A stretch of DNA of 64,000 nt from an uncultured Christensenella sp. Its GTDB lineage: Bacteria > Bacillota > Clostridia > Christensenellales > CAG-917. Position numbers and translations under genes: made by a program. Shown in pieces: positions 2,732 through 64,000 of this stretch; the first letter of the stretch is position 1, and each line of letters begins with the position of its first letter. Under the pieces are notes generated by a model. The model ran no database searches. It was not told where the DNA came from and worked only from the letters and a program-made list of their open reading frames with translations. Location of the stretch: positions 29,663 to 93,662 of the forward strand of contig CAJTYG010000001.1 in assembly GCA_910584155.1 (NCBI GenBank), in the 5' to 3' direction.

Positions 2732-4522
2732 TTATTTGATAGGCTCGAAATCCGCAACGCCGTGCTTGCAGAGGGGGCAAACGAAGTCCTCGGGCAGCTC
2801 TTCGCCCTCATAGACGTATCCGCACACCTTGCACACCCAGCCCTTTTTGCCCTCGGTTTGAGGACGGGGCTTGACGTGTTGCTGATAGTAGTTGTATGTC
2901 ATCGTTTCGGTGGGCTCTATCACACGAGACTCGGTGACGGTGCAGACAAACATTCCGTGCGTGTCGAGGTCGATATATCTTTCCACCTTGAGGGACATAA
3001 ACGAGTTGATATATCTCGGCAAAAACACCACGCCGTTGTCCGAGCGCAGAAGCTGCTCGCTACCCGCAAATTTGTCAGTATCTCTGCCGCTGTGGAAGCC
3101 AAACTGCTCAAACACAGCAAACGGAGCGTCCGTAGATAGGCAATTTACGTTTAAAACGCCGGTCTTTTTGATGATTTCGTGCGAATAGTTTGCCTTGTTT
3201 ACGGCAACGCCTATGCGGTTTGGCGAGTTTGTAAGCTGAGTTACGGTATTGACGATAAGTCCGTTGTCCTTGTCGCCGTCCCTTGACGTGACGACGTAAA
3301 GCCCGTATCCTATCTTAAATAACGCCGTAAGGTCGTTTTTATCCGCCGCCTCGGAGCGAGCCACATAATCTCTGCAAAGCTCGGTCGCCAAAGCCTCTAT
3401 CTGCGCAACCGATTCCTCGTTGAGCGCAGACATTATGCGCACGGTGTTTTCCGCATATGTGAGGTTTTTGCTGCCCTCGAGCATACTCTTCATCACACGT
3501 GTTGCCATAGGCGCCCAACTGCCGTTTTCAATGAAAGCGACCGTTCTGTTTTGGAAGTTGCGCTCGGTGAGGTGATGTATAAACTCTTTCATAAACGGGA
3601 AGACGTCTGCATTGTATGTCGTTGTGGCAAGCACTATCTTGCTGTATTTGAATGCGTCCTCAACGGCTTCCGCCATATCGCATCTTGCGAGGTCGCAGAC
3701 GGACAGTTTTTCACAGCCCTTTTCCTCAAGCTTTTTGGCAAGCAGCTCGACCGCCTCTTTGGTGTGCCCGTAAACGGAAGTATATGCGATGACAATGCCG
3801 TCCTTCTCCGCCTGATAGGACGACCAGATGTTGTACAGATTGATATAATATCCCAAATTTTCGGTAAGCACAGGTCCGTGCAGAGGGCAGATTATTTTGA
3901 TATCCAGTCCCGCCGCCTTCTTCAACAGCGCCTGCACCTGCGCACCGTACTTGCCAACTATGCCGATATAATAGCGGCGTGCCTCGCAAGCCCATTCCTC
4001 ATCGACGTCGAGTGCGCCGAATTTGCCAAAGCCGTCCGCCGAGAAAAGCACCTTGTCTGTAGAATCGTATGTCACGATGACCTCGGGCCAATGCACCATA
4101 GGCGCAGCGACAAACGTAAGCTCATGCTTGCCCAGCGACAGCGTATCCCCCTCGCCTACGACAAGATTGCGACCTGCAAAATCCGTGCCGAAAAACTGCT
4201 CCATCATCTTAAACGCCTTTTGCGAGGACACGACTGTTGCGGCAGGATATGTGTTCATAAACTTCACGATGTTTGCCGAGTGGTCTGGCTCCATATGCTG
4301 CACGATGAGGTAGGCAGGCTTTTTGCCGCCTAAAACAGCCGCAATATTTTGCAACCACTGCTCGCCAAAGCGAGCGTCTACGGTGTCAAAGACCGCAATT
4401 TTATCGTCCAAAATCACATAGGAATTGTATGCCATTCCGTTTTCAACAACGTACTGACCTTCAAACAAATCGATATCGTGATCGTTTACGCCGACATATT
4501 TTATATCGCCAGTGATATTCAT
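2732..4522 (-). CDS. Multidomain flavodiiron protein: metallo-beta-lactamase-like diiron + flavodoxin + flavin-reductase-like + C-terminal rubredoxin
   Basis: N-terminus has the HMEPDHSAN diiron/MBL motif, followed by a flavodoxin-like segment and a flavin-reductase-like segment (LYVVTSRDGDKDNGLIVNTV). The C-terminus WVCKVCGYVYEGEELPEDFVCPLCKH is a rubredoxin CxxC...CxxC. Start set at ATG 4522, preceded by a GGAGG RBS. Confidence 0.85.
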   Translation of the reverse strand: MNITGDIKYVGVNDHDIDLFEGQYVVENGMAYNSYVILDDKIAVFDTVDARFGEQWLQNIAAVLGGKKPAYLIVQHMEPDHSANIVKFMNTYPAATVVSSQKAFKMMEQFFGTDFAGRNLVVGEGDTLSLGKHELTFVAAPMVHWPEVIVTYDSTDKVLFSADGFGKFGALDVDEEWACEARRYYIGIVGKYGAQVQALLKKAAGLDIKIICPLHGPVLTENLGYYINLYNIWSSYQAEKDGIVIAYTSVYGHTKEAVELLAKKLEEKGCEKLSVCDLARCDMAEAVEDAFKYSKIVLATTTYNADVFPFMKEFIHHLTERNFQNRTVAFIENGSWAPMATRVMKSMLEGSKNLTYAENTVRIMSALNEESVAQIEALATELCRDYVARSEAADKNDLTALFKIGYGLYVVTSRDGDKDNGLIVNTVTQLTNSPNRIGVAVNKANYSHEIIKKTGVLNVNCLSTDAPFAVFEQFGFHSGRDTDKFAGSEQLLRSDNGVVFLPRYINSFMSLKVERYIDLDTHGMFVCTVTESRVIEPTETMTYNYYQQHVKPRPQTEGKKGWVCKVCGYVYEGEELPEDFVCPLCKHGVADFEPIK

Positions 4523-4761
4523 AATGTATGCCTCCAAATTTTTTTCGCACAAAGTATATCACACAAAATTTACGTTTTCAACCGCATAAGCGCATTTAGT
4601 GTAATGTAATATTTACAATCATTTGAAAAAACAAACTTTTGTTAGCTTTTTAAATCTCTGAAGCGCAGTTAAAGCAAATGCGTATTATTGCAAAAGCCGC
4701 AGTTTATCTGCGGCTTTTAGGTGTTTAAACTTTGTTTTAGTGAATTTTTGCCGATATTATA

Positions 4762-5445
4762 TCACACGTGCAAGCGGCGTTTCAGCTCGCCGAGGTAGGA
4801 TTTGTTTGCAAACACTGCAAGTGCAACAACGTCTATCACGCCTCTGCCTGCGCAGACATACCAACCCCATGTGCAGGTTTTCAGCCACGCAAAGGATATG
4901 CCTATGCAGATGAGTGAAAGCACCGCAAGCTTTGTCAGCGACATTTCATAATCCGCTCTGCACTTTTTGTGCGCAAGGCAAAGTATCTCAAGCACGGTTT
5001 GCCACACGAGCACTGTGACGGGTGCGCCAAGCCAAAATGCCCACGGCTCTTTAAACACGTTTATCCAGCCGTTTAAATAAAACAGCAGTGCTATTATTCC
5101 AAAGAAAACCCAAGACAGAATTTTGCGCACATTATGCTTTAAAAGAAGAGGACGGGCGACGCACAGCCACGGCAGCGCAATGCCAAACATCACGTGTATA
5201 GCCCAAGACAGCGTTTTGTTTACTGCAAGGTCCACGACAATGCAAATGCCCATTGCAAGCAGTGAGATAAACACGCTCCACTTCCAGAAGCTTTCCTTTT
5301 TACTTTTATCCTGTATTTGAGGATATGCGCAGTCTGACGGCGCAGTTTCGTCATTTACGTGTGCACCGCAAAGCGGACAGTTTATAAGCGAAGTATCCAC
5401 TTCTACGCCGCATCTGCGGCAATTTTTCTTTTCTGAATTATCCAT
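4762..5445 (-). CDS. Membrane protein with N-terminal zinc ribbon (DUF6320-like)
   Basis: CRRCGVEVDTSLINCPLCGAHV zinc ribbon followed by about 5 TM helices. ATG at 5445 is preceded by an AGGAG RBS and starts right after the stop of the upstream gene. Confidence 0.65.
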   Translation of the reverse strand: MDNSEKKNCRRCGVEVDTSLINCPLCGAHVNDETAPSDCAYPQIQDKSKKESFWKWSVFISLLAMGICIVVDLAVNKTLSWAIHVMFGIALPWLCVARPLLLKHNVRKILSWVFFGIIALLFYLNGWINVFKEPWAFWLGAPVTVLVWQTVLEILCLAHKKCRADYEMSLTKLAVLSLICIGISFAWLKTCTWGWYVCAGRGVIDVVALAVFANKSYLGELKRRLHV

Positions 5446-57402: not shown

Positions 57403-58161
57403 ATGAACAAAGTGCAAATGATATTAAAAGCAAAAACTTATATGGAATTTATGGCTCATTCAATCGATCCGACCACTCAGGAAGATGTTGAAGACTCAGT
57501 GCTGCAAAAATGTGAAATCAAAGATATGTTTTTATTTATAGCTTCTTTACTGGATGAACTTATTAAAAATAACGGAGAGGTTATAAATGTTGCCTCTCCT
57601 ATTGAATTTTCAATAGATAAAATAAATAAAAATATGATTGCCGTTTCGGAGCAGCCTATTTAAATAGACGGATTTGTAAGACGTATCAATAGCCAAGTGG
57701 ATAAAACCAAAATGAAAACATTCAAGCCTTCACGGCTTACAGAGTGGTTGTTAAATAACGGATTTTTAAATAAGGATAAAAAAACTGTCGTGAAAAATCA
57801 AACAGTTTATACCGTGACCTCTACTTCATCGGACATTGGAATTATCGAGCAAGAAAAAACAAATTCAGAAACAGGAGAAATAGATAAAACAATCGTTTTA
57901 ACTAAAACGGCACAAGAATTCATTGTAGAAAATTTAGAAAGTATTATGGGACTTTCAGAGGATATAAAGGCTCCGAATCATGATATTGTATATCCGACAT
58001 CAGATATGGTCGGGCAAAGATGGACTGAAGAAGAACAGCAAAGACTGATTTGTGAGTTTGTTAATGAAAAGTTAACAATAGAACAAATTGCCCGTCTTCA
58101 TCAAAGAAAATCAGGCGGAATAAAATCACGCTTAATAAAATTAGAGTTGATAGAAAAATGA
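57403..58161 (+). pseudogene. Gene split by a single in-frame TAA (57661-57663); C-terminal Myb/HTH_40-like helix-turn-helix
   Basis: ORFs 57403-57663 and 57697-58161 are in the same frame. The read-through text is ...AVSEQPI*IDGFVRRINSQVDKTKMKTFKPSRLTEWLLNNGFL.... The C-terminus is WTEEEQQRLICEFVNEKLTIEQIARLHQRKSGGIKSRLIKLELI. It resembles the C-terminal accessory region of RecQ/RecD-like helicases (assignment from memory). Confidence 0.45.
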
Positions 58162-58460
58162 AAATTTAAATTGTTACATAATCTTTAGATATTAAAAGTG
58201 TGATGGGCTGTCTCATTTTGTTCTGCAGAAAAACAAAATTAAGTGTAAATGAAAAATGATAGAGCATGAATAATCCTTGCCCAATCTTATCAAACATAAA
58301 CTTAATTCAAATTAAATTTATATAAGGCAAGAATTTGCGAAATTCCGAATTTTTTACATATAAGAAAAAGTTTGGGATAGTGGTGGCGATAGAGTGAGTA
58401 TATTCTCATTATTTATGTTGGCTTAGAGGTAAGATAAATTTGCAATACTATGTAGTTCTT

Positions 58461-60185
58461 TTATATTGGCACATTGTTTTGCAAATTTATTATTTTATTT
58501 TCAAATTGTTCTATAAGATTTAAAATATTAATATTTTTAATTTTAGTTTTTCTATTAATCTTTGCTTCTAGACTTAAATATGTTTTTTCGAATCTATCAC
58601 GCAACGAGTGCTTATGATAGAGAGGAAAAATTTCTTTGGTTCTTTTACAAATTGCAATAGCATCCAATTTGAAATATGGTAGGATTTCTTTTATTAGATT
58701 ATTGTCATAGCTACAGAATAGAGGCACCAACAAATCACTTGTTTCATCGTTAAATGAAAAGTTAATTATCAACATCTTTAAATGGAATATATCCCATGCC
58801 ATATTCTTAATAATAGAAAGTATATTCTTTGTGTTGAATTGAATGCCATTGAAGAATTTTAGTGCGCTAGGATTCTTGTAGAAGTCATAGGCTAGTTCTA
58901 GTTCGGCAATTGGAAAATTGCATATTTCATTGTCAAAAATTTCGCATAATAAATTAAGTTTGCTTTCAAGCGATTTCTTAGAATGCTTTAAATGTATATA
59001 GCATATTACCAAAATATTAAGATATACTGAGTCATATATGTTTTTAAAAATTATAAGGGCACTTTCTTTTAATTGGAGATATAAATCTCTGGCTTTTTCA
59101 AAGCATTCATTATCTGTTAGACCTTGACGACTATAGAAGTATTTTTCCATATAAAAAATCGTATCACAAATTTTTGCTTCGTTTGGAGAGGTGGACAATA
59201 GGTTTTCTAAAATATAAGGTTGGTAATCAAAACTAATATTCCCATGGTTCATGATTGATAGACAGGCGTTAATTGTTTGTAGTACGGAGGTGGGTAAATG
59301 GGATGTATTACCTTGTAAATAACTGCGTATATATGAGGCAACATTAGTATCGAACGAGACAGATTGTTGGCGCAATACCAAATTCTTACTTCTGGTTAGA
59401 ATATCGATATTGATAAAATTAACGCAATCATTATAAAAAGGAGTGTGCAAAACATTTTTAATATCTTTTATTCCAGTAAAAACATTATAAAGGTTAATAG
59501 GTATAACATCAGCATTGTCATAATTGGATTTAATTATAACAAGTTCCGAAAACGACACGTCATTTAAATATGTATTAGCTAGATCTTTGATTGGCATTTT
59601 GCACAAATCGTAGATTTTTTGTTCAAAAGGTGTATATCTATAAATTTGGGGTGCTTGAATAGCTCTTAAATATGCAGATTCAACTTCATTATATTCTTTA
59701 CTATTATCTTGATTGGTTATTTTATTTAATAGAGTTAATGCTAGTTTATAAGCATGAAAGAGATTTGCTATTATTAATTTAGTAATTTCTATTTGATCAT
59801 TCAGTGTTTGCGTGGCTGTATTGATTAATTCGGTATAAGACTTTGTCCTCCATTCTCTTTTGTCTTTAACTCCGTTGATTACTAATTCCGCAAATTCATC
59901 TTCTGTTAGATTGTGTTGTTGAGCTTTTATTAATAGTTGTTTTATTCTGTCTATTAAACTTGATAGCTTAAAAATATTATGATATGCGGTTTTTTGCCCA
60001 GCTTCTAATTCAGAAATATATTTATTGGTGGTTTCTTTGGAGAATGAGGCATATCCCGATACAAAGACATCATAGGGAATGCCATATATTTCTGCTTGTA
60101 TTCTATATATGTTGTCAATGGCATTATAATCGTATATTATTTCATTATTTATATGGGTAGAATGATTTTTATTTCTGGTTTTCAT
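58461..60185 (-). CDS. Hypothetical 574-aa protein, no recognisable motif, predicted all-alpha, soluble
   Basis: Long uninterrupted ORF in a very AT-rich island. Lies 124 nt downstream of, and co-oriented with, the NucC-like gene. Confidence 0.6.
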   Translation of the reverse strand: MKTRNKNHSTHINNEIIYDYNAIDNIYRIQAEIYGIPYDVFVSGYASFSKETTNKYISELEAGQKTAYHNIFKLSSLIDRIKQLLIKAQQHNLTEDEFAELVINGVKDKREWRTKSYTELINTATQTLNDQIEITKLIIANLFHAYKLALTLLNKITNQDNSKEYNEVESAYLRAIQAPQIYRYTPFEQKIYDLCKMPIKDLANTYLNDVSFSELVIIKSNYDNADVIPINLYNVFTGIKDIKNVLHTPFYNDCVNFINIDILTRSKNLVLRQQSVSFDTNVASYIRSYLQGNTSHLPTSVLQTINACLSIMNHGNISFDYQPYILENLLSTSPNEAKICDTIFYMEKYFYSRQGLTDNECFEKARDLYLQLKESALIIFKNIYDSVYLNILVICYIHLKHSKKSLESKLNLLCEIFDNEICNFPIAELELAYDFYKNPSALKFFNGIQFNTKNILSIIKNMAWDIFHLKMLIINFSFNDETSDLLVPLFCSYDNNLIKEILPYFKLDAIAICKRTKEIFPLYHKHSLRDRFEKTYLSLEAKINRKTKIKNINILNLIEQFENKIINLQNNVPI

Positions 60186-60309: not shown

Positions 60310-61095
60310 TTAAAGTATTTTAGGGTCAATACCTTTTATGCCATATTTATCGTATTCTATTGCTGGGACATTACCTAAGTCCTGCAACATTCTTAACAAC
60401 TTAAAATATGTAAAAATTAAAGGACTATTTTCACTGTCTGTTACAATTTCGAAATCTGGAACATATATATTAACTCCATGAAATTGTGAAATTTGTGCGC
60501 TGTGTTTTAAAGCACAAGCAAATATTGAGAGGCAGCAAATAAAATCAATTTCTTCATTATTTTCTTTAGTGATTTCATTTATTGTATTTATTATATTTTG
60601 CTGAATATTTTCATTAACCCATGAACTTTTTAAGGTTAATAATCCGCCAACTATTGTTGGTGCGGTTCTTCCTTCTATATAACCACTTATTGTATTTATA
60701 GGCGCAGAAGTTCTAATAAGAGATTTAACGCTTTTTATTTTATTTTTTGTATAAACTAGATGTTCTTTTGTAAGTTCTTGTTTTACTTCAAAAACAGCGT
60801 AAACACTCTCTGCTGGAATATATTTTGAACTATTATTCTCAAATATTGTTGGAGAAAAATGCGTGTCATATATAACTATGTCCATTTGTTCACTGCAATT
60901 ACCTAAATGATCTATAACAAAGGCCTTTTCCGCATGATATCTTTTGGGGAAGTTATTATTGAACCAATTTCTCCATTCCTCCTCTGTTGCATCTCCTTTT
61001 GTAACTGGATGCTCAAATCCAGCGTTTAATCCAAAACTAGCCAGCATTTGGTTTTGTTTTAATTCAAATAATTGTTTTATGTTTATTTTTGTCAT
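60310..61095 (-). CDS. nucC: PD-(D/E)xK nuclease, NucC-like candidate CBASS effector
   Basis: ...HPVTKGDATEEEWRNWFNNNFPKRYHAEKAFVIDHLGNCSEQMDIVIYD-x25-IPAESVYAVFEVKQ is a D...E-x-K restriction-endonuclease core. With the ATG at 61095 (GGTGGA RBS), the Glu/Lys fall at residues 103/105 and the Asp at 72. That is essentially the positions I recall for E. coli NucC (D73/E103/K105). Confidence 0.55.
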   Translation of the reverse strand: MTKINIKQLFELKQNQMLASFGLNAGFEHPVTKGDATEEEWRNWFNNNFPKRYHAEKAFVIDHLGNCSEQMDIVIYDTHFSPTIFENNSSKYIPAESVYAVFEVKQELTKEHLVYTKNKIKSVKSLIRTSAPINTISGYIEGRTAPTIVGGLLTLKSSWVNENIQQNIINTINEITKENNEEIDFICCLSIFACALKHSAQISQFHGVNIYVPDFEIVTDSENSPLIFTYFKLLRMLQDLGNVPAIEYDKYGIKGIDPKIL

Positions 61096-61455
61096 CAATA
61101 TCCACCAAACCATTTTACTTAGGGCATTAGTATAACATGTAACTATCAACTTTGTATGAAAATTTAATAAAAAATTGATAGGGAGGTATCATAAGTTTGT
61201 TTATGCGCTTAATTGTGCGGCTGTCAATGTCTTGCATATTATCTTACGTATATTCTTACTCATAATTAATTGCGTGTCCTGTTCTTTTTGTGAATGTAGT
61301 CTACCACGAATATTTAACTCGAATACTTGATTTATTGTATTCCAGATATCGTTAAGATTTTAACGATTACTTGTTTCATATGATTATTAAAAAAGAATAA
61401 TAGGGGTTAAAGTTTCTTAAAATGTGCACAATAAATTTTTAAATATATCAGTTTG

Positions 61456-61935
61456 TCATTCTAATTCTTCGAGTTTTATTACAGTGTTATTTAACGCCAA
61501 ATAGACATTGAACTTATAATTATTCTTTTCATTACTAGCGATTATCATAATAGGCTCAGGACACTTATAATCTTTTTGTTTAGAAATAGATAACAGTTGG
61601 TTAATATCAGTAGAGCTCGCTGTGGGAGTTGCATAAGGATGCAAGTGCCATTCGCCCAAATAATATTCATTTTTTTCCCATAGTTCTCTTAATTTGGCCG
61701 TCAAACCTGAAACACCACGAACAAATGAGAATCTTTTTATAATAGAATCGGTAGGGGGTAGATGAAAAGTTTTAATAGTTGCTATTGAATTATTATTTTC
61801 ATAGGTGCCGGTTAAAATTCCACCTATTTCATTTGACGAAACAGATAGAGTGTCATTGAGTATTTTTATAATAGTATCGGTCTCAAATTTTACACATAAA
61901 TCTTTATATTTAAAAATCTTATTCTGACCACTCAT
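61456..61935 (-). CDS. cap3: JAB/JAMM metalloprotease, Cap3-like
   Basis: NEIGGIL (catalytic Glu) and EWHLHPYATPTASSTD (HxH-x7-S-x2-D JAMM motif). 159 aa, with a 17-nt overlap with the upstream E2/E1 gene. Confidence 0.8.
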   Translation of the reverse strand: MSGQNKIFKYKDLCVKFETDTIIKILNDTLSVSSNEIGGILTGTYENNNSIATIKTFHLPPTDSIIKRFSFVRGVSGLTAKLRELWEKNEYYLGEWHLHPYATPTASSTDINQLLSISKQKDYKCPEPIMIIASNEKNNYKFNVYLALNNTVIKLEELE

Positions 61936-63676
61936 CTACTACCTCTATTTTATATTTATTTAATTTCCAGTGAATGCAAGAATTTGTAAATGTTTCTTGT
62001 TCTTTTTGTTCAATTGCCTTTACTAGAATACTTGACCAAATATTGATATCATCAAATCTAGCAGGGAATACAGGATGATAACAGCCAACGCCTTGCATAA
62101 CTAAATCTTGTTCAGTCAATTCTAAGTCATCAATAATTTTTTTATAGATAGGCACAATTCTATTTTGATATTCATCTGTGTTGAATAGCTTGCCCTTATT
62201 AAAATAGACAATAAAGTCTGTAGCCCCATATCCGACAGCGGCTATTACAAATAATTTATCGTCTTTAAATTCATAAGTTTTAAGCAGTTTGATTACTTCT
62301 GGATTTGCGGAGCAATCTATAATTATGTTGGCTGACTTTAACTTGCTGATATTGGATGATTGTAAGTCGCCGTTAGAAGAAACCGTTAAATTGGGATTGT
62401 TCTTCGTAATTTTATCTTTTATCGCTACAACCTTATATTTCCCATTGTCATCTAAGTTTAGAATATGGCGAGCTATATTAAAATATGTAAAATGATCAGA
62501 ATCATATAAGGCGATTTCGTCAAATCCCAATCTTGAAAGATTCTCTGCCAAAAGAGATCCTATAGCGCCTAGACCAATTATAGCGATATTTTTTTGAGCA
62601 ATGCTTGAGTCCATTTTCCCTCTTGAAAGTAAATATTCATTATCTATATTCTCTGAAAAGCAATATTTAATTTTGCCTTTGAATAGATTTAAATAGTACT
62701 TTAATTTGCTGTGAGTAGAATTTCGAAAACCGTTTTGGGGATAATTAAATGCTGGAAGTTCTATAAACAGCCAGCTCATAGTGCGATTCGGGCCGTTGAT
62801 TTTAGCAGGAATAGGGAAAGTCAAACATAAAATCTTGCCCGCTGCAATCATATTGCTTTTGATAAATAGCTTTGTTAATGTGCCTAATAAGTCTATTTCT
62901 TGGTCTTGACAAATTTTTATTAAAGATTCCCATTTGACTGGAAAACTCCACGGTAATTCCAGTGGTAGTTTTTTTAATTTTATCCAAACGGAATGTTTGC
63001 TTAAAATTCTAGCACTTTCAATATAATTCCCCCAAAAGACTCGGCCTCTACTTTCATCATAATCGATATTATATATTTCTTTGAGTACAAGATAGTTTGC
63101 TTCTCCAAATGTTTTTTCAGCTAATTGAGCATAACCGAAAGTGTATGGGAAAGCAACCCAATTATCCAAGCTGTTTTCTTTATATAAACACTTAAAATCA
63201 GATAGAGCATAATCAGTCAAAGGTATCTCAAAAGGATCATTATTTTTTACCAATTCATTTTTTGATGCTTTAGTTATCCATTCAATAGCTCTATCTAAAT
63301 ACCATTTGAATATATCTATATAATCTTTTGGTAAGTAGTCAAATGATTGATTGTCAAGAACATGTAATGTACGGTCTAAGCATAATTTTCCTTGATAATA
63401 TGGAGCAGCTGGTTCATCATCACGATTTAAAGATTGATGTTGAAAAGTAACTTTTATCCCACCATCTTTTGCGGGATAAAAGTCTATCTGCTTTTCATGA
63501 AAAATAATCACCCAATGAGTTACTAAAGGAATAAAAGCATTATTTGATTCGTTTAATGTAATACTTATTTTCATCAAATAGTCATCCTTAAATTTGTATA
63601 CATCTTCAAGAATTTCTACATTATTATAAGTATCAATTATGCTTCTTGCCTCTCTAATCTGTTGTTCGCTTATCAT
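61919..63676 (-). CDS. cap2: E2-like + E1 (ThiF/MoeB-like) fusion protein, Cap2-like
   Basis: The N-terminal TFQHQS...YYQGKLCLD is an E2-like H-x-[NQ]...Cys segment. The C-terminal IAIIGLGAIGSLLAENLSRLGFDEIALYDSD is the ThiF Rossmann GxGxxG, followed by GVGCYHPVF (candidate E1 Cys). 585 aa, ATGA overlap with the upstream gene. Confidence 0.8.
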   Translation of the reverse strand: MISEQQIREARSIIDTYNNVEILEDVYKFKDDYLMKISITLNESNNAFIPLVTHWVIIFHEKQIDFYPAKDGGIKVTFQHQSLNRDDEPAAPYYQGKLCLDRTLHVLDNQSFDYLPKDYIDIFKWYLDRAIEWITKASKNELVKNNDPFEIPLTDYALSDFKCLYKENSLDNWVAFPYTFGYAQLAEKTFGEANYLVLKEIYNIDYDESRGRVFWGNYIESARILSKHSVWIKLKKLPLELPWSFPVKWESLIKICQDQEIDLLGTLTKLFIKSNMIAAGKILCLTFPIPAKINGPNRTMSWLFIELPAFNYPQNGFRNSTHSKLKYYLNLFKGKIKYCFSENIDNEYLLSRGKMDSSIAQKNIAIIGLGAIGSLLAENLSRLGFDEIALYDSDHFTYFNIARHILNLDDNGKYKVVAIKDKITKNNPNLTVSSNGDLQSSNISKLKSANIIIDCSANPEVIKLLKTYEFKDDKLFVIAAVGYGATDFIVYFNKGKLFNTDEYQNRIVPIYKKIIDDLELTEQDLVMQGVGCYHPVFPARFDDINIWSSILVKAIEQKEQETFTNSCIHWKLNKYKIEVVDEWSE

Positions 63677-64000
63677 GCAAATCTGCCTTCTGAGTTTATT
63701 ATTGAAGGACCTTTTCTATCTGTAAAAGATGAAGTTGGGGTTCTATATACAGGGAACTCATTTCCAAAAATTTTTTGCCACAATTTAGAACTCTCAGTTT
63801 TGTCTTGTTCATAATAAGCTTGTGAAGCTATCTTTGCCGCATTTCTAACTTGAGTTATAAATTGTTCATAATCTTCTTGTGTTACTCTAGCAAAAACATC
63901 ATGTTCGGGAACGCCAATATCGGGTAATTTAGGTTTTATAATGGATACTTTTGATATTGCATTAAAAGCTTCATAAATAGCTTCTTCCAATGTCAAATAG
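63673..64000 (-). CDS. C-terminal part of a probable CD-NTase (SMODS-type nucleotidyltransferase); gene runs off the right edge
   Basis: The reading frame is open to the window edge. The helical C-terminus ...QAYYEQDKTESSKLWQKIFGNEFP is followed by a disordered tail ending ...SEGRFA. Its position directly upstream of cap2-cap3 is the usual CD-NTase position. The catalytic domain is not visible in this window. Confidence 0.45.
   Translation of the reverse strand, partial: YLTLEEAIYEAFNAISKVSIIKPKLPDIGVPEHDVFARVTQEDYEQFITQVRNAAKIASQAYYEQDKTESSKLWQKIFGNEFPVYRTPTSSFTDRKGPSIINSEGRFA

Follow-up and report, generated by a model that had tools for sequence, protein, structure and literature searches.

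A type II CBASS operon with an upstream SAVED protein, followed by an apparently captured NucC nuclease, in an AT-rich island of an uncultured Christensenella sp.

We analysed a stretch of 64,000 nucleotides (nt) from an uncultured Christensenella sp. (contig CAJTYG010000001.1, positions 29,663 to 93,662; the window, in what follows), and in particular its end, positions 60310-64000, where a preliminary description made from the sequence alone had placed a type II CBASS (a phage-defence signalling system based on cyclic oligonucleotides) together with a NucC-like nuclease. All four minus-strand open reading frames (ORFs) of this segment were found at the coordinates given there, and every catalytic motif was intact. 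They are the 3' end of the cyclase gene cdn (63673..64000; the last 108 codons and the stop, ending ...SEGRFA and open at the window edge), cap2 (61919..63676), which encodes a 585-residue E2-linker-E1 fusion, cap3 (61456..61935), which encodes a 159-residue JAMM/JAB isopeptidase, and nucC (60310..61095), which encodes a 261-residue nuclease and has a GGTGG ribosome-binding site on its 5' side. An AT-rich spacer of 338 nt (61118..61455, same strand) lies between the last two. The cdn and cap2 genes overlap by 4 nt (the start codon of cap2 lies over the stop of cdn), and cap2 and cap3 by 17 nt, which supports translational coupling. The ORFs, the hidden Markov model (HMM) matches and the two overlaps agree, and the proposed minus-strand cdn-cap2-cap3 order of a type II CBASS was thus borne out. 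The parent contig (L001) was retrieved by an exact look-up of Cap2, and a window coordinate equals 73677 minus the L001 coordinate. On this contig the cyclase gene is complete (361 residues; L001 8919-10004, window 63673-64758, running past the window end). A gene for a 390-residue protein with a SAVED domain lies 10 nt upstream of it, past base 64000, in the canonical effector position, and SAVED-cdn-cap2-cap3-nucC all stand on one strand. Of this complete type II CBASS the window holds the 3' part, and after it a NucC gene that was acquired separately.

The part of the cyclase that falls in the window matched the PADLOC 'oligonucleotide cyclase' model PDLC00822 (E = 4.9e-26, profile positions 267-353 of 375), while the complete 361-residue protein matched the same model at 4e-98 and Pfam SMODS at 3.7e-23. 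The partial ORF at the edge had been read as the C-terminus of a CD-NTase (a nucleotidyltransferase of the cGAS/DncV-like kind) with a GRFA tail. The contig extension established this, as the GS...DxD core that lies past the window edge is present in the full protein from L001 (G51S52, D68-I-D70 and D129). The best solved relatives in the PDB were structures of the Enterobacter cloacae cyclic AMP-AMP-GMP (cAAG) synthase CdnD (7LJL, 7D48 and 7TO3, ~1e-63), an enzyme whose product is mainly cAAG, with cyclic tri-AMP (cAAA) as a minor one. These alignments place the cyclase in the CdnD clade, near the cAAG synthase of E. cloacae. About 25 residues extend beyond its last conserved helix to the terminus GRFA, and they align with the tail of the CdnD homologue 7LJM (...GRF-x). 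An extended disordered C-terminal tail with a conserved terminus is the substrate of Cap2 and a feature of type II CBASS cyclases (bioRxiv 10.1101/2022.03.31.486616).

Cap2 matched PADLOC E1-E2 (E = 8.8e-128), Pfam ThiF (9.9e-21) and, in the PDB, the Cap2 of 7TO3 (3.4e-49). The protein carries the QHQ motif, the E2 cysteine in GKLC99LD, the adenylation loop G368LGAIG (G368xGxxG) and the E1 cysteine in GVGC532. Cys99 and Cys532 align with C109 and C548, the positions changed in the deposited mutant C109A/C548A; these are the catalytic cysteines of the E. cloacae Cap2 (bioRxiv 10.1101/2022.03.31.486616). Cap3 matched PADLOC JAB (1.1e-46) and Pfam Prok-JAB (1.2e-9), and its JAMM motif, E36...H97xH99-x7-S107-x2-D110, is complete. 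The earlier reading of these two ORFs as an E2/E1 fusion and a JAMM protease therefore holds at each of the motifs that it named. A first metagenome scan in which Cap2 was the sole query returned nothing.

The 261-residue protein had been proposed to be a NucC, and this was confirmed. It matched PADLOC 'Endonuclease (NucC)' (2.3e-74), Pfam DUF6602 (1.6e-30) and the Escherichia coli NucC structure 6P7O in the PDB (5.1e-38, residues 6-252). The longest ORF of the gene has 279 residues from a TTG, and the 261-residue form, from the ATG at 61095, agrees with the N-termini of the homologues. M71-D72...E103-V-K105 aligns with I72-D73...E104-A-K106 of the E. coli protein, in which IDx30EAK (D73, E104 and K106) is the active-site motif (bioRxiv 10.1101/694703). 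The protein also has all 28 invariant columns of a 29-sequence family alignment, which is true by definition, as the query is included. In the pocket for cyclic triadenylate (cA3), R53 of the E. coli protein is kept as R52, Y81 is conservatively replaced by F80, and V227 corresponds to V243.

We observed that the homology on the two sides of the spacer ends abruptly, and with different relatives. On the CBASS side, a close relative, L098 (same sample as L007), can be aligned with cdn-cap2-cap3 of the window at 92.6% DNA identity, up to the last base of the cap3 stop codon (L001 12219, window 61458) and no further. Past cap3, the slot is filled in L098 by other, unrelated ORFs of 161 residues (3042-3527) and at least 395 residues (3614-4798), which had no PADLOC or PHROG match. 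In L093, about 200 nt past cap3, there is a terminator-like hairpin and then what by eye resembles a tRNA gene; NucC is absent. On the other side, the NucC is 74-81% identical to the NucCs of L003 and L005, where the gene lies 7-10 nt past a 278-residue cyclase (PADLOC model PDLC00803), and the blastn homology to these two loci (75-80%) covers window 60317-61117 only, that is, nucC and the 22 nt before its ATG. The abundant NucC relatives P0007 and P0022 (75% and 65% identical, in hundreds of collection blocks) have the layout of a small cyclase and NucC too, and they adjoin serine recombinases in most of the places shown. With one breakpoint at the stop of cap3 and the other 22 nt ahead of the nucC start, these alignments point to capture of NucC without its cyclase, and we conclude from them that it was acquired separately from a mobile type I cassette of small cyclase and NucC. 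It seems that the island takes up varying cargo at the position after cap3.

The block SAVED-cdn-cap2-cap3 was found again in L093-L095 at 40-59% protein identity, and its beginning only (SAVED-cyclase) in L096. By these comparisons the conserved cassette has four genes, SAVED-cdn-cap2-cap3, with cap3 as the last gene and NucC outside. The preliminary description had taken NucC to be the likely effector of the operon. As the native or only effector it could not be upheld, given the SAVED protein upstream and the position of NucC outside the cassette in both L098 and L093.

The gap between cap3 and nucC measures 360 nt (61096-61455), and its 338-nt spacer is homologous to neither the CBASS relatives nor the cyclase-NucC cassettes. 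We considered whether the spacer is a decayed small-cyclase gene and rejected this, since the L003 and L005 cyclases gave no match between cap3 and the point 22 nt before the nucC ATG (tblastn at E <= 10, and blastn with word size 7). A structured RNA or a small gene was also rejected: the gap has no ORF of more than 36 residues, no Rfam match (E <= 1), no excess folding (z = 0.28) and no notable repeats, and the 338-nt spacer had no match in the plasmid collection. No terminator-like site was seen between cap3 and nucC, with the terminator and promoter scans at chance level in such AT-rich DNA. A perfect TTGACA about 115 nt before the nucC ATG is accompanied by only a weak -10 (by eye), and we do not count it as evidence. 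From the homology limits on either side we read the spacer as the join that the NucC capture left behind, and a NucC promoter may lie in it. The gap of about 360 nt had been singled out earlier as unusual. It is both real and unusual, and it is accounted for by the separate capture of NucC.

The neighbourhoods of NucC were surveyed by comparing the 29-sequence alignment with metagenome contigs and keeping the 80 best loci, which are those most similar to the query alignment and not a random sample. Neighbours were classed by HMMs built for this survey from few seeds, and a divergent HORMA may have been overlooked. A cyclase adjoining NucC, with nothing else detected, was found in 54 of the 80 loci. 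Cap2 and/or Cap3 lay directly upstream of NucC in 10 loci, a HORMA/TRIP13 signal was present in five (one of them, L008, doubtful), and a cyclase was not seen in 11, mostly with short flanks. In the ten type II loci NucC lies 0-68 nt past cap3 or forms one ORF with it (L073 and L083), and no recognisable additional effector was found upstream. The plasmid NZ_CP027558.1 of Rhodococcus rhodochrous BX2 likewise carries a nucleotidyltransferase, ThiF, JAB and DUF6602 gene, with 34 nt between the last two. The pairing of type II CBASS with NucC, which the preliminary description had considered unusual, is thus recurrent, and it is present in a RefSeq plasmid under generic product names; the frequency of NucC in type II CBASS given here is that of the present survey.

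This recurrence speaks for the model put forward at first, in which nucC has been part of a cdn-cap2-cap3-nucC operon from the beginning, with NucC as its one native effector and no more than a long intergenic region in the gap, as such an architecture does occur elsewhere (the ten loci and the Rhodococcus plasmid). For the window, this model is nevertheless contradicted by the breakpoints, and we regard it as highly improbable. A SAVED effector gene occupies the canonical upstream position, close relatives cease to align past the cap3 stop, and the nearest kin of the NucC, at 65-81% identity, are type I NucCs. The type II NucC loci, on the other hand, are only 20-24% identical to the window in their cyclases and 36-42% in their NucCs, and we conclude from this low identity that the pairing in the window arose independently.

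A few side observations were made among the surveyed NucC loci. In L073 (7536-8792) and L083 (7542-8807) the JAB (Cap3) and NucC parts form a continuous ORF of 419-422 residues, possibly a Cap3-NucC fusion, as judged by ORF calling only. NucC is often annotated just as 'DUF6602 domain-containing protein'. The Acinetobacter baumannii plasmid pBJAB0715 (L107, 12126-15671) has a cyclase, a hypothetical gene, an AAA ATPase and a DUF6602 gene. Going by the product names in RefSeq, we read this layout as type III; it is that of the one Acinetobacter plasmid inspected. A 138-residue hypothetical ORF overlaps the 3' end of its NucC gene.

The SAVED domain of the 390-residue protein spans residues ~171-384 (Pfam SAVED 1.4e-10), and the PADLOC and Pfam matches are limited to this part. 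In an AlphaFold model (predicted local distance difference test score, pLDDT, 78) the SAVED fold follows six helices, and there is no beta-sheet in residues 1-150. The closest fold is that of the E. cloacae Cap4 (Foldseek; 7YIB at 1.6e-13 and 6VM6 at 4.9e-12), but the N-terminal DUF4297 PD-(D/E)xK nuclease domain of Cap4-type proteins is not present. The isolated helical N-domain gave no significant fold match in the PDB (best Foldseek E = 0.57, TM-score <= 0.31) and no match in Pfam, PADLOC 2.0 or PHROG, and no catalytic motif was found in it. The protein had no PDB sequence match over the N-domain, no transmembrane segment and no match among plasmids. The sequence, family, fold, transmembrane and plasmid searches thus gave no assignment for this domain.

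The SAVED protein is rare, with two sequences in a word-indexed search of 5.8 billion proteins and 17 by HMMER over 1.84 billion cluster representatives (E <= 0.001). In every relative whose context was fetched, its gene lies directly upstream of a CD-NTase. One relative, L097 (220-1416), matches in the N-domain only; the SAVED joined to it there is Cap5-type (dinucleotide-type), and the gene lies upstream of a 510-residue AGS-C cyclase. That the N-domain occurs with sensors of two types, and each time in the effector position, suggests that it is an effector module, mobile across CBASS lineages, and we consider the protein of helical domain and SAVED a candidate for carrying a new CBASS effector domain. 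An N-domain fragment was also seen in P0146, with a helix-turn-helix on one side and the C-terminus of an integrase on the other; P0146 is probably chimeric or a pseudogene.

These properties of the SAVED protein bear on a further explanation, in which NucC is the true killing effector and the SAVED protein is a regulator without an enzymatic domain, such as a signal buffer, a ring nuclease or an adaptor. An N-domain that is all-helical and has neither catalytic motif, transmembrane segment nor significant fold match would fit a regulator, and stand-alone SAVED ring nucleases exist (PDB 9R8S was among the fold matches). We consider this explanation unlikely, because the complete operon of L093 offers no effector candidate but the SAVED protein, because its N-domain reappears on a Cap5-type SAVED by another cyclase (L097), a shuffling typical of effector modules, and because the close relative L098 has its operon without NucC.

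A working order of events can be proposed by analogy with the systems of E. cloacae and Vibrio cholerae. Cap2 would adenylate the disordered tail of the cyclase (...GRFA) and conjugate it to a target, which would prime the cyclase, and Cap3 would reverse this conjugation. On infection, the cyclase would make a cyclic trinucleotide, which we infer from its clade to be of the cAAG/cAAA type. The SAVED protein would be the native receptor and effector of the cassette. NucC trimers would bind the same trinucleotide, pair to hexamers and cut DNA, giving a second, nuclease output. NucC may in this way act in trans, as a second effector that answers to the shared signal. This is the reading that we favour, at about even odds; it is supported by the intact NucC, a cyclase of a clade that makes trinucleotides, the lack of any other cyclase or CRISPR detected in the 64-kb window, and the lack of a terminator-like site before nucC.

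Several observations weigh against this action in trans. The close relative L098 has no NucC after cap3. The other cdn-cap2-cap3-nucC loci examined all have 0-68 nt where this one has 360 nt, and so atypical a gap makes co-transcription of nucC uncertain. The fit of ligand and receptor is imperfect as well. In the pairwise alignment, the ligand position T226 of the E. coli NucC is N242 here. The latch residues H136 and Y141 align with T135 and I140, with Y139 adjacent, in a loop whose alignment is uncertain. Furthermore, cAAG is a weak activator of NucC. Finally, the scan for cyclases and CRISPR covered the 64-kb window, and another source of cA3 in the rest of the genome is possible.

The main alternative is that NucC is an unlinked orphan, a leftover or stray cargo that stands beside the CBASS by accident. 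It would then be silent, inert for want of its own cyclase, or in the service of cA3 made elsewhere in the genome, for example by a type III CRISPR system. The breakpoints that put NucC outside the conserved cassette, the unrelated genes that fill the same slot in L098 and the atypical 360-nt spacing all agree with this, as does the next gene downstream, Unk574 (described below), which is likewise independent cargo. In L063 and L081 a NucC has no cyclase within 8 kb, and NucC is also known as an accessory nuclease of type III CRISPR systems (bioRxiv 10.1101/694703). Set against these are the condition and the surroundings of the gene. It is intact, with every family-invariant residue (in an alignment that includes the query), and it lies on the CBASS strand with no terminator-like site in between. 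Its neighbour is a cyclase of a trinucleotide-making clade, which fits the NucC ligand, and no CRISPR or second cyclase was detected in the window. We take an orphan NucC to be possible, though somewhat doubtful.

Comparison with known systems places the locus as follows. The E. cloacae type II CBASS (cap4-cdnD-cap2-cap3; 7LJL, 7TO3 and 7YIB) has the same order of SAVED effector, CdnD-clade cyclase, Cap2 and Cap3. Both catalytic cysteines of Cap2 and the CdnD-type tail are common to the two, and the SAVED protein finds its best fold match in Cap4 of that system. The two differ in the N-domain, which is a six-helix domain here and a DUF4297 PD-(D/E)xK nuclease there, and in the nucC that follows cap3 here. 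Type II systems with NucC as the sole effector (NZ_CP027558.1, L014, L051, L061 and L078) have cdn-cap2-cap3-nucC on one strand, as in the window. The window, however, has the 360-nt spacing and a second receptor, whereas no upstream SAVED gene was found in those systems. In the type I cassette of small cyclase and NucC (L003, L005 and L099-L106), the NucCs are 65-81% identical to ours, but a cyclase of 278-280 residues, missing here, always lies 1-10 nt before the NucC. The type III NucCs of E. coli MS115-1 and Pseudomonas aeruginosa (6P7O, 6P7P and 6Q1H) show full-length homology at ~35-40% identity; the IDx30EAK site is conserved, and of the ligand contacts the arginine is kept and the aromatic residue conservatively replaced, while the gate-loop latch, by a pairwise alignment that is uncertain in this loop, is not conserved. 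Unlike type III CBASS, the locus has no HORMA/TRIP13 (none was called in L001, and the in-house HMMs were null in the window). The core of CdnD, Cap2, Cap3 and NucC is known CBASS, and the locus is a modest variation on a known system. Its unusual feature is that two candidate receptors for one trinucleotide signal stand in one type II locus.

The system lies in an AT-rich island. The GC content falls from ~0.50 to ~0.29 directly past the stop of mnmG (57369) and stays low for at least 16 kb. The island after mnmG, as described previously, is therefore real; the operon, however, does not sit right after mnmG, as three further island genes (57403-60185) separate the two, and rsmG, which that description had put on the other side of the breakpoint, was not seen. 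The island opens with ORFs at 57403-57663 (+) and 57697-58161 (+). The first, of 86 residues, matches nothing. The second, of 154 residues, has weak matches to KilAC/ANT and a 'D5-like transcriptional regulator' (E from 5e-4 to 0.02). An inverted repeat at 58434-58490 (20-nt arms, 90% complementary, 17-nt loop) lies where this plus-strand ORF and a minus-strand ORF of 574 residues converge, partly over the 3' end of the latter, and is probably a bidirectional terminator.

The 574-residue ORF, Unk574 (58461-60185, minus strand), lies 125 nt 3' of nucC and had no match in Pfam, PADLOC, NCBIfam, PHROGs or the PDB. Its homologues (80% and 31-34% identity) were found in other defence islands without CBASS, next to WYL, UvrD and OLD-family genes, or between an HpaII restriction-modification system on one side and AbiH on the other. 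One member of its cluster occurs on 177 contigs, named only 'hypothetical protein [Clostridia bacterium]'. Since these islands have no CBASS, we rejected Unk574 as a CBASS component and regard it as independent cargo; it may be a defence gene that acts on its own.

On the far side of the operon, an unusually long RNase III protein of 352 residues with a double-stranded RNA-binding domain (L001 6303-7361, minus strand; window-equivalent ~66316-67374) is encoded divergently from the SAVED gene, and the two share an intergenic region of 375 nt. A role of this gene as a CBASS regulator was rejected, since the protein is kept only in the near-identical island L006/L007 (93% amino acid identity) and is absent from the more distant operon L093. 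The island further contains a 1596-residue fusion of DEAD/Helicase_C and UvrD-type helicases (L001 561-5351, minus strand), with PADLOC matches to DpdF (1e-94) and GajB (3e-46), followed at the end of the L001 locus by a partial radical-SAM gene.

What is new here, besides the two candidate receptors in one type II locus, is the record of a NucC captured apart from its own cyclase, an event that accounts for the long gap, together with a rare, uncharacterised helical-domain SAVED effector just outside the window. The breakpoints provide a clean natural example of the movement of an effector between CBASS types, in which NucC moved out of a type I cassette and came to lie next to a type II system, the cyclase of which is from a clade with a compatible product. 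Tentatively, the locus could be a natural dual-output CBASS, in which one CdnD trinucleotide triggers both the captured NucC and a rare SAVED effector with a new, non-enzymatic-looking six-helix module for killing or signalling. If both receptors do respond, a phage would have to defeat two unrelated outputs, or sponge the signal that they share, in order to escape.

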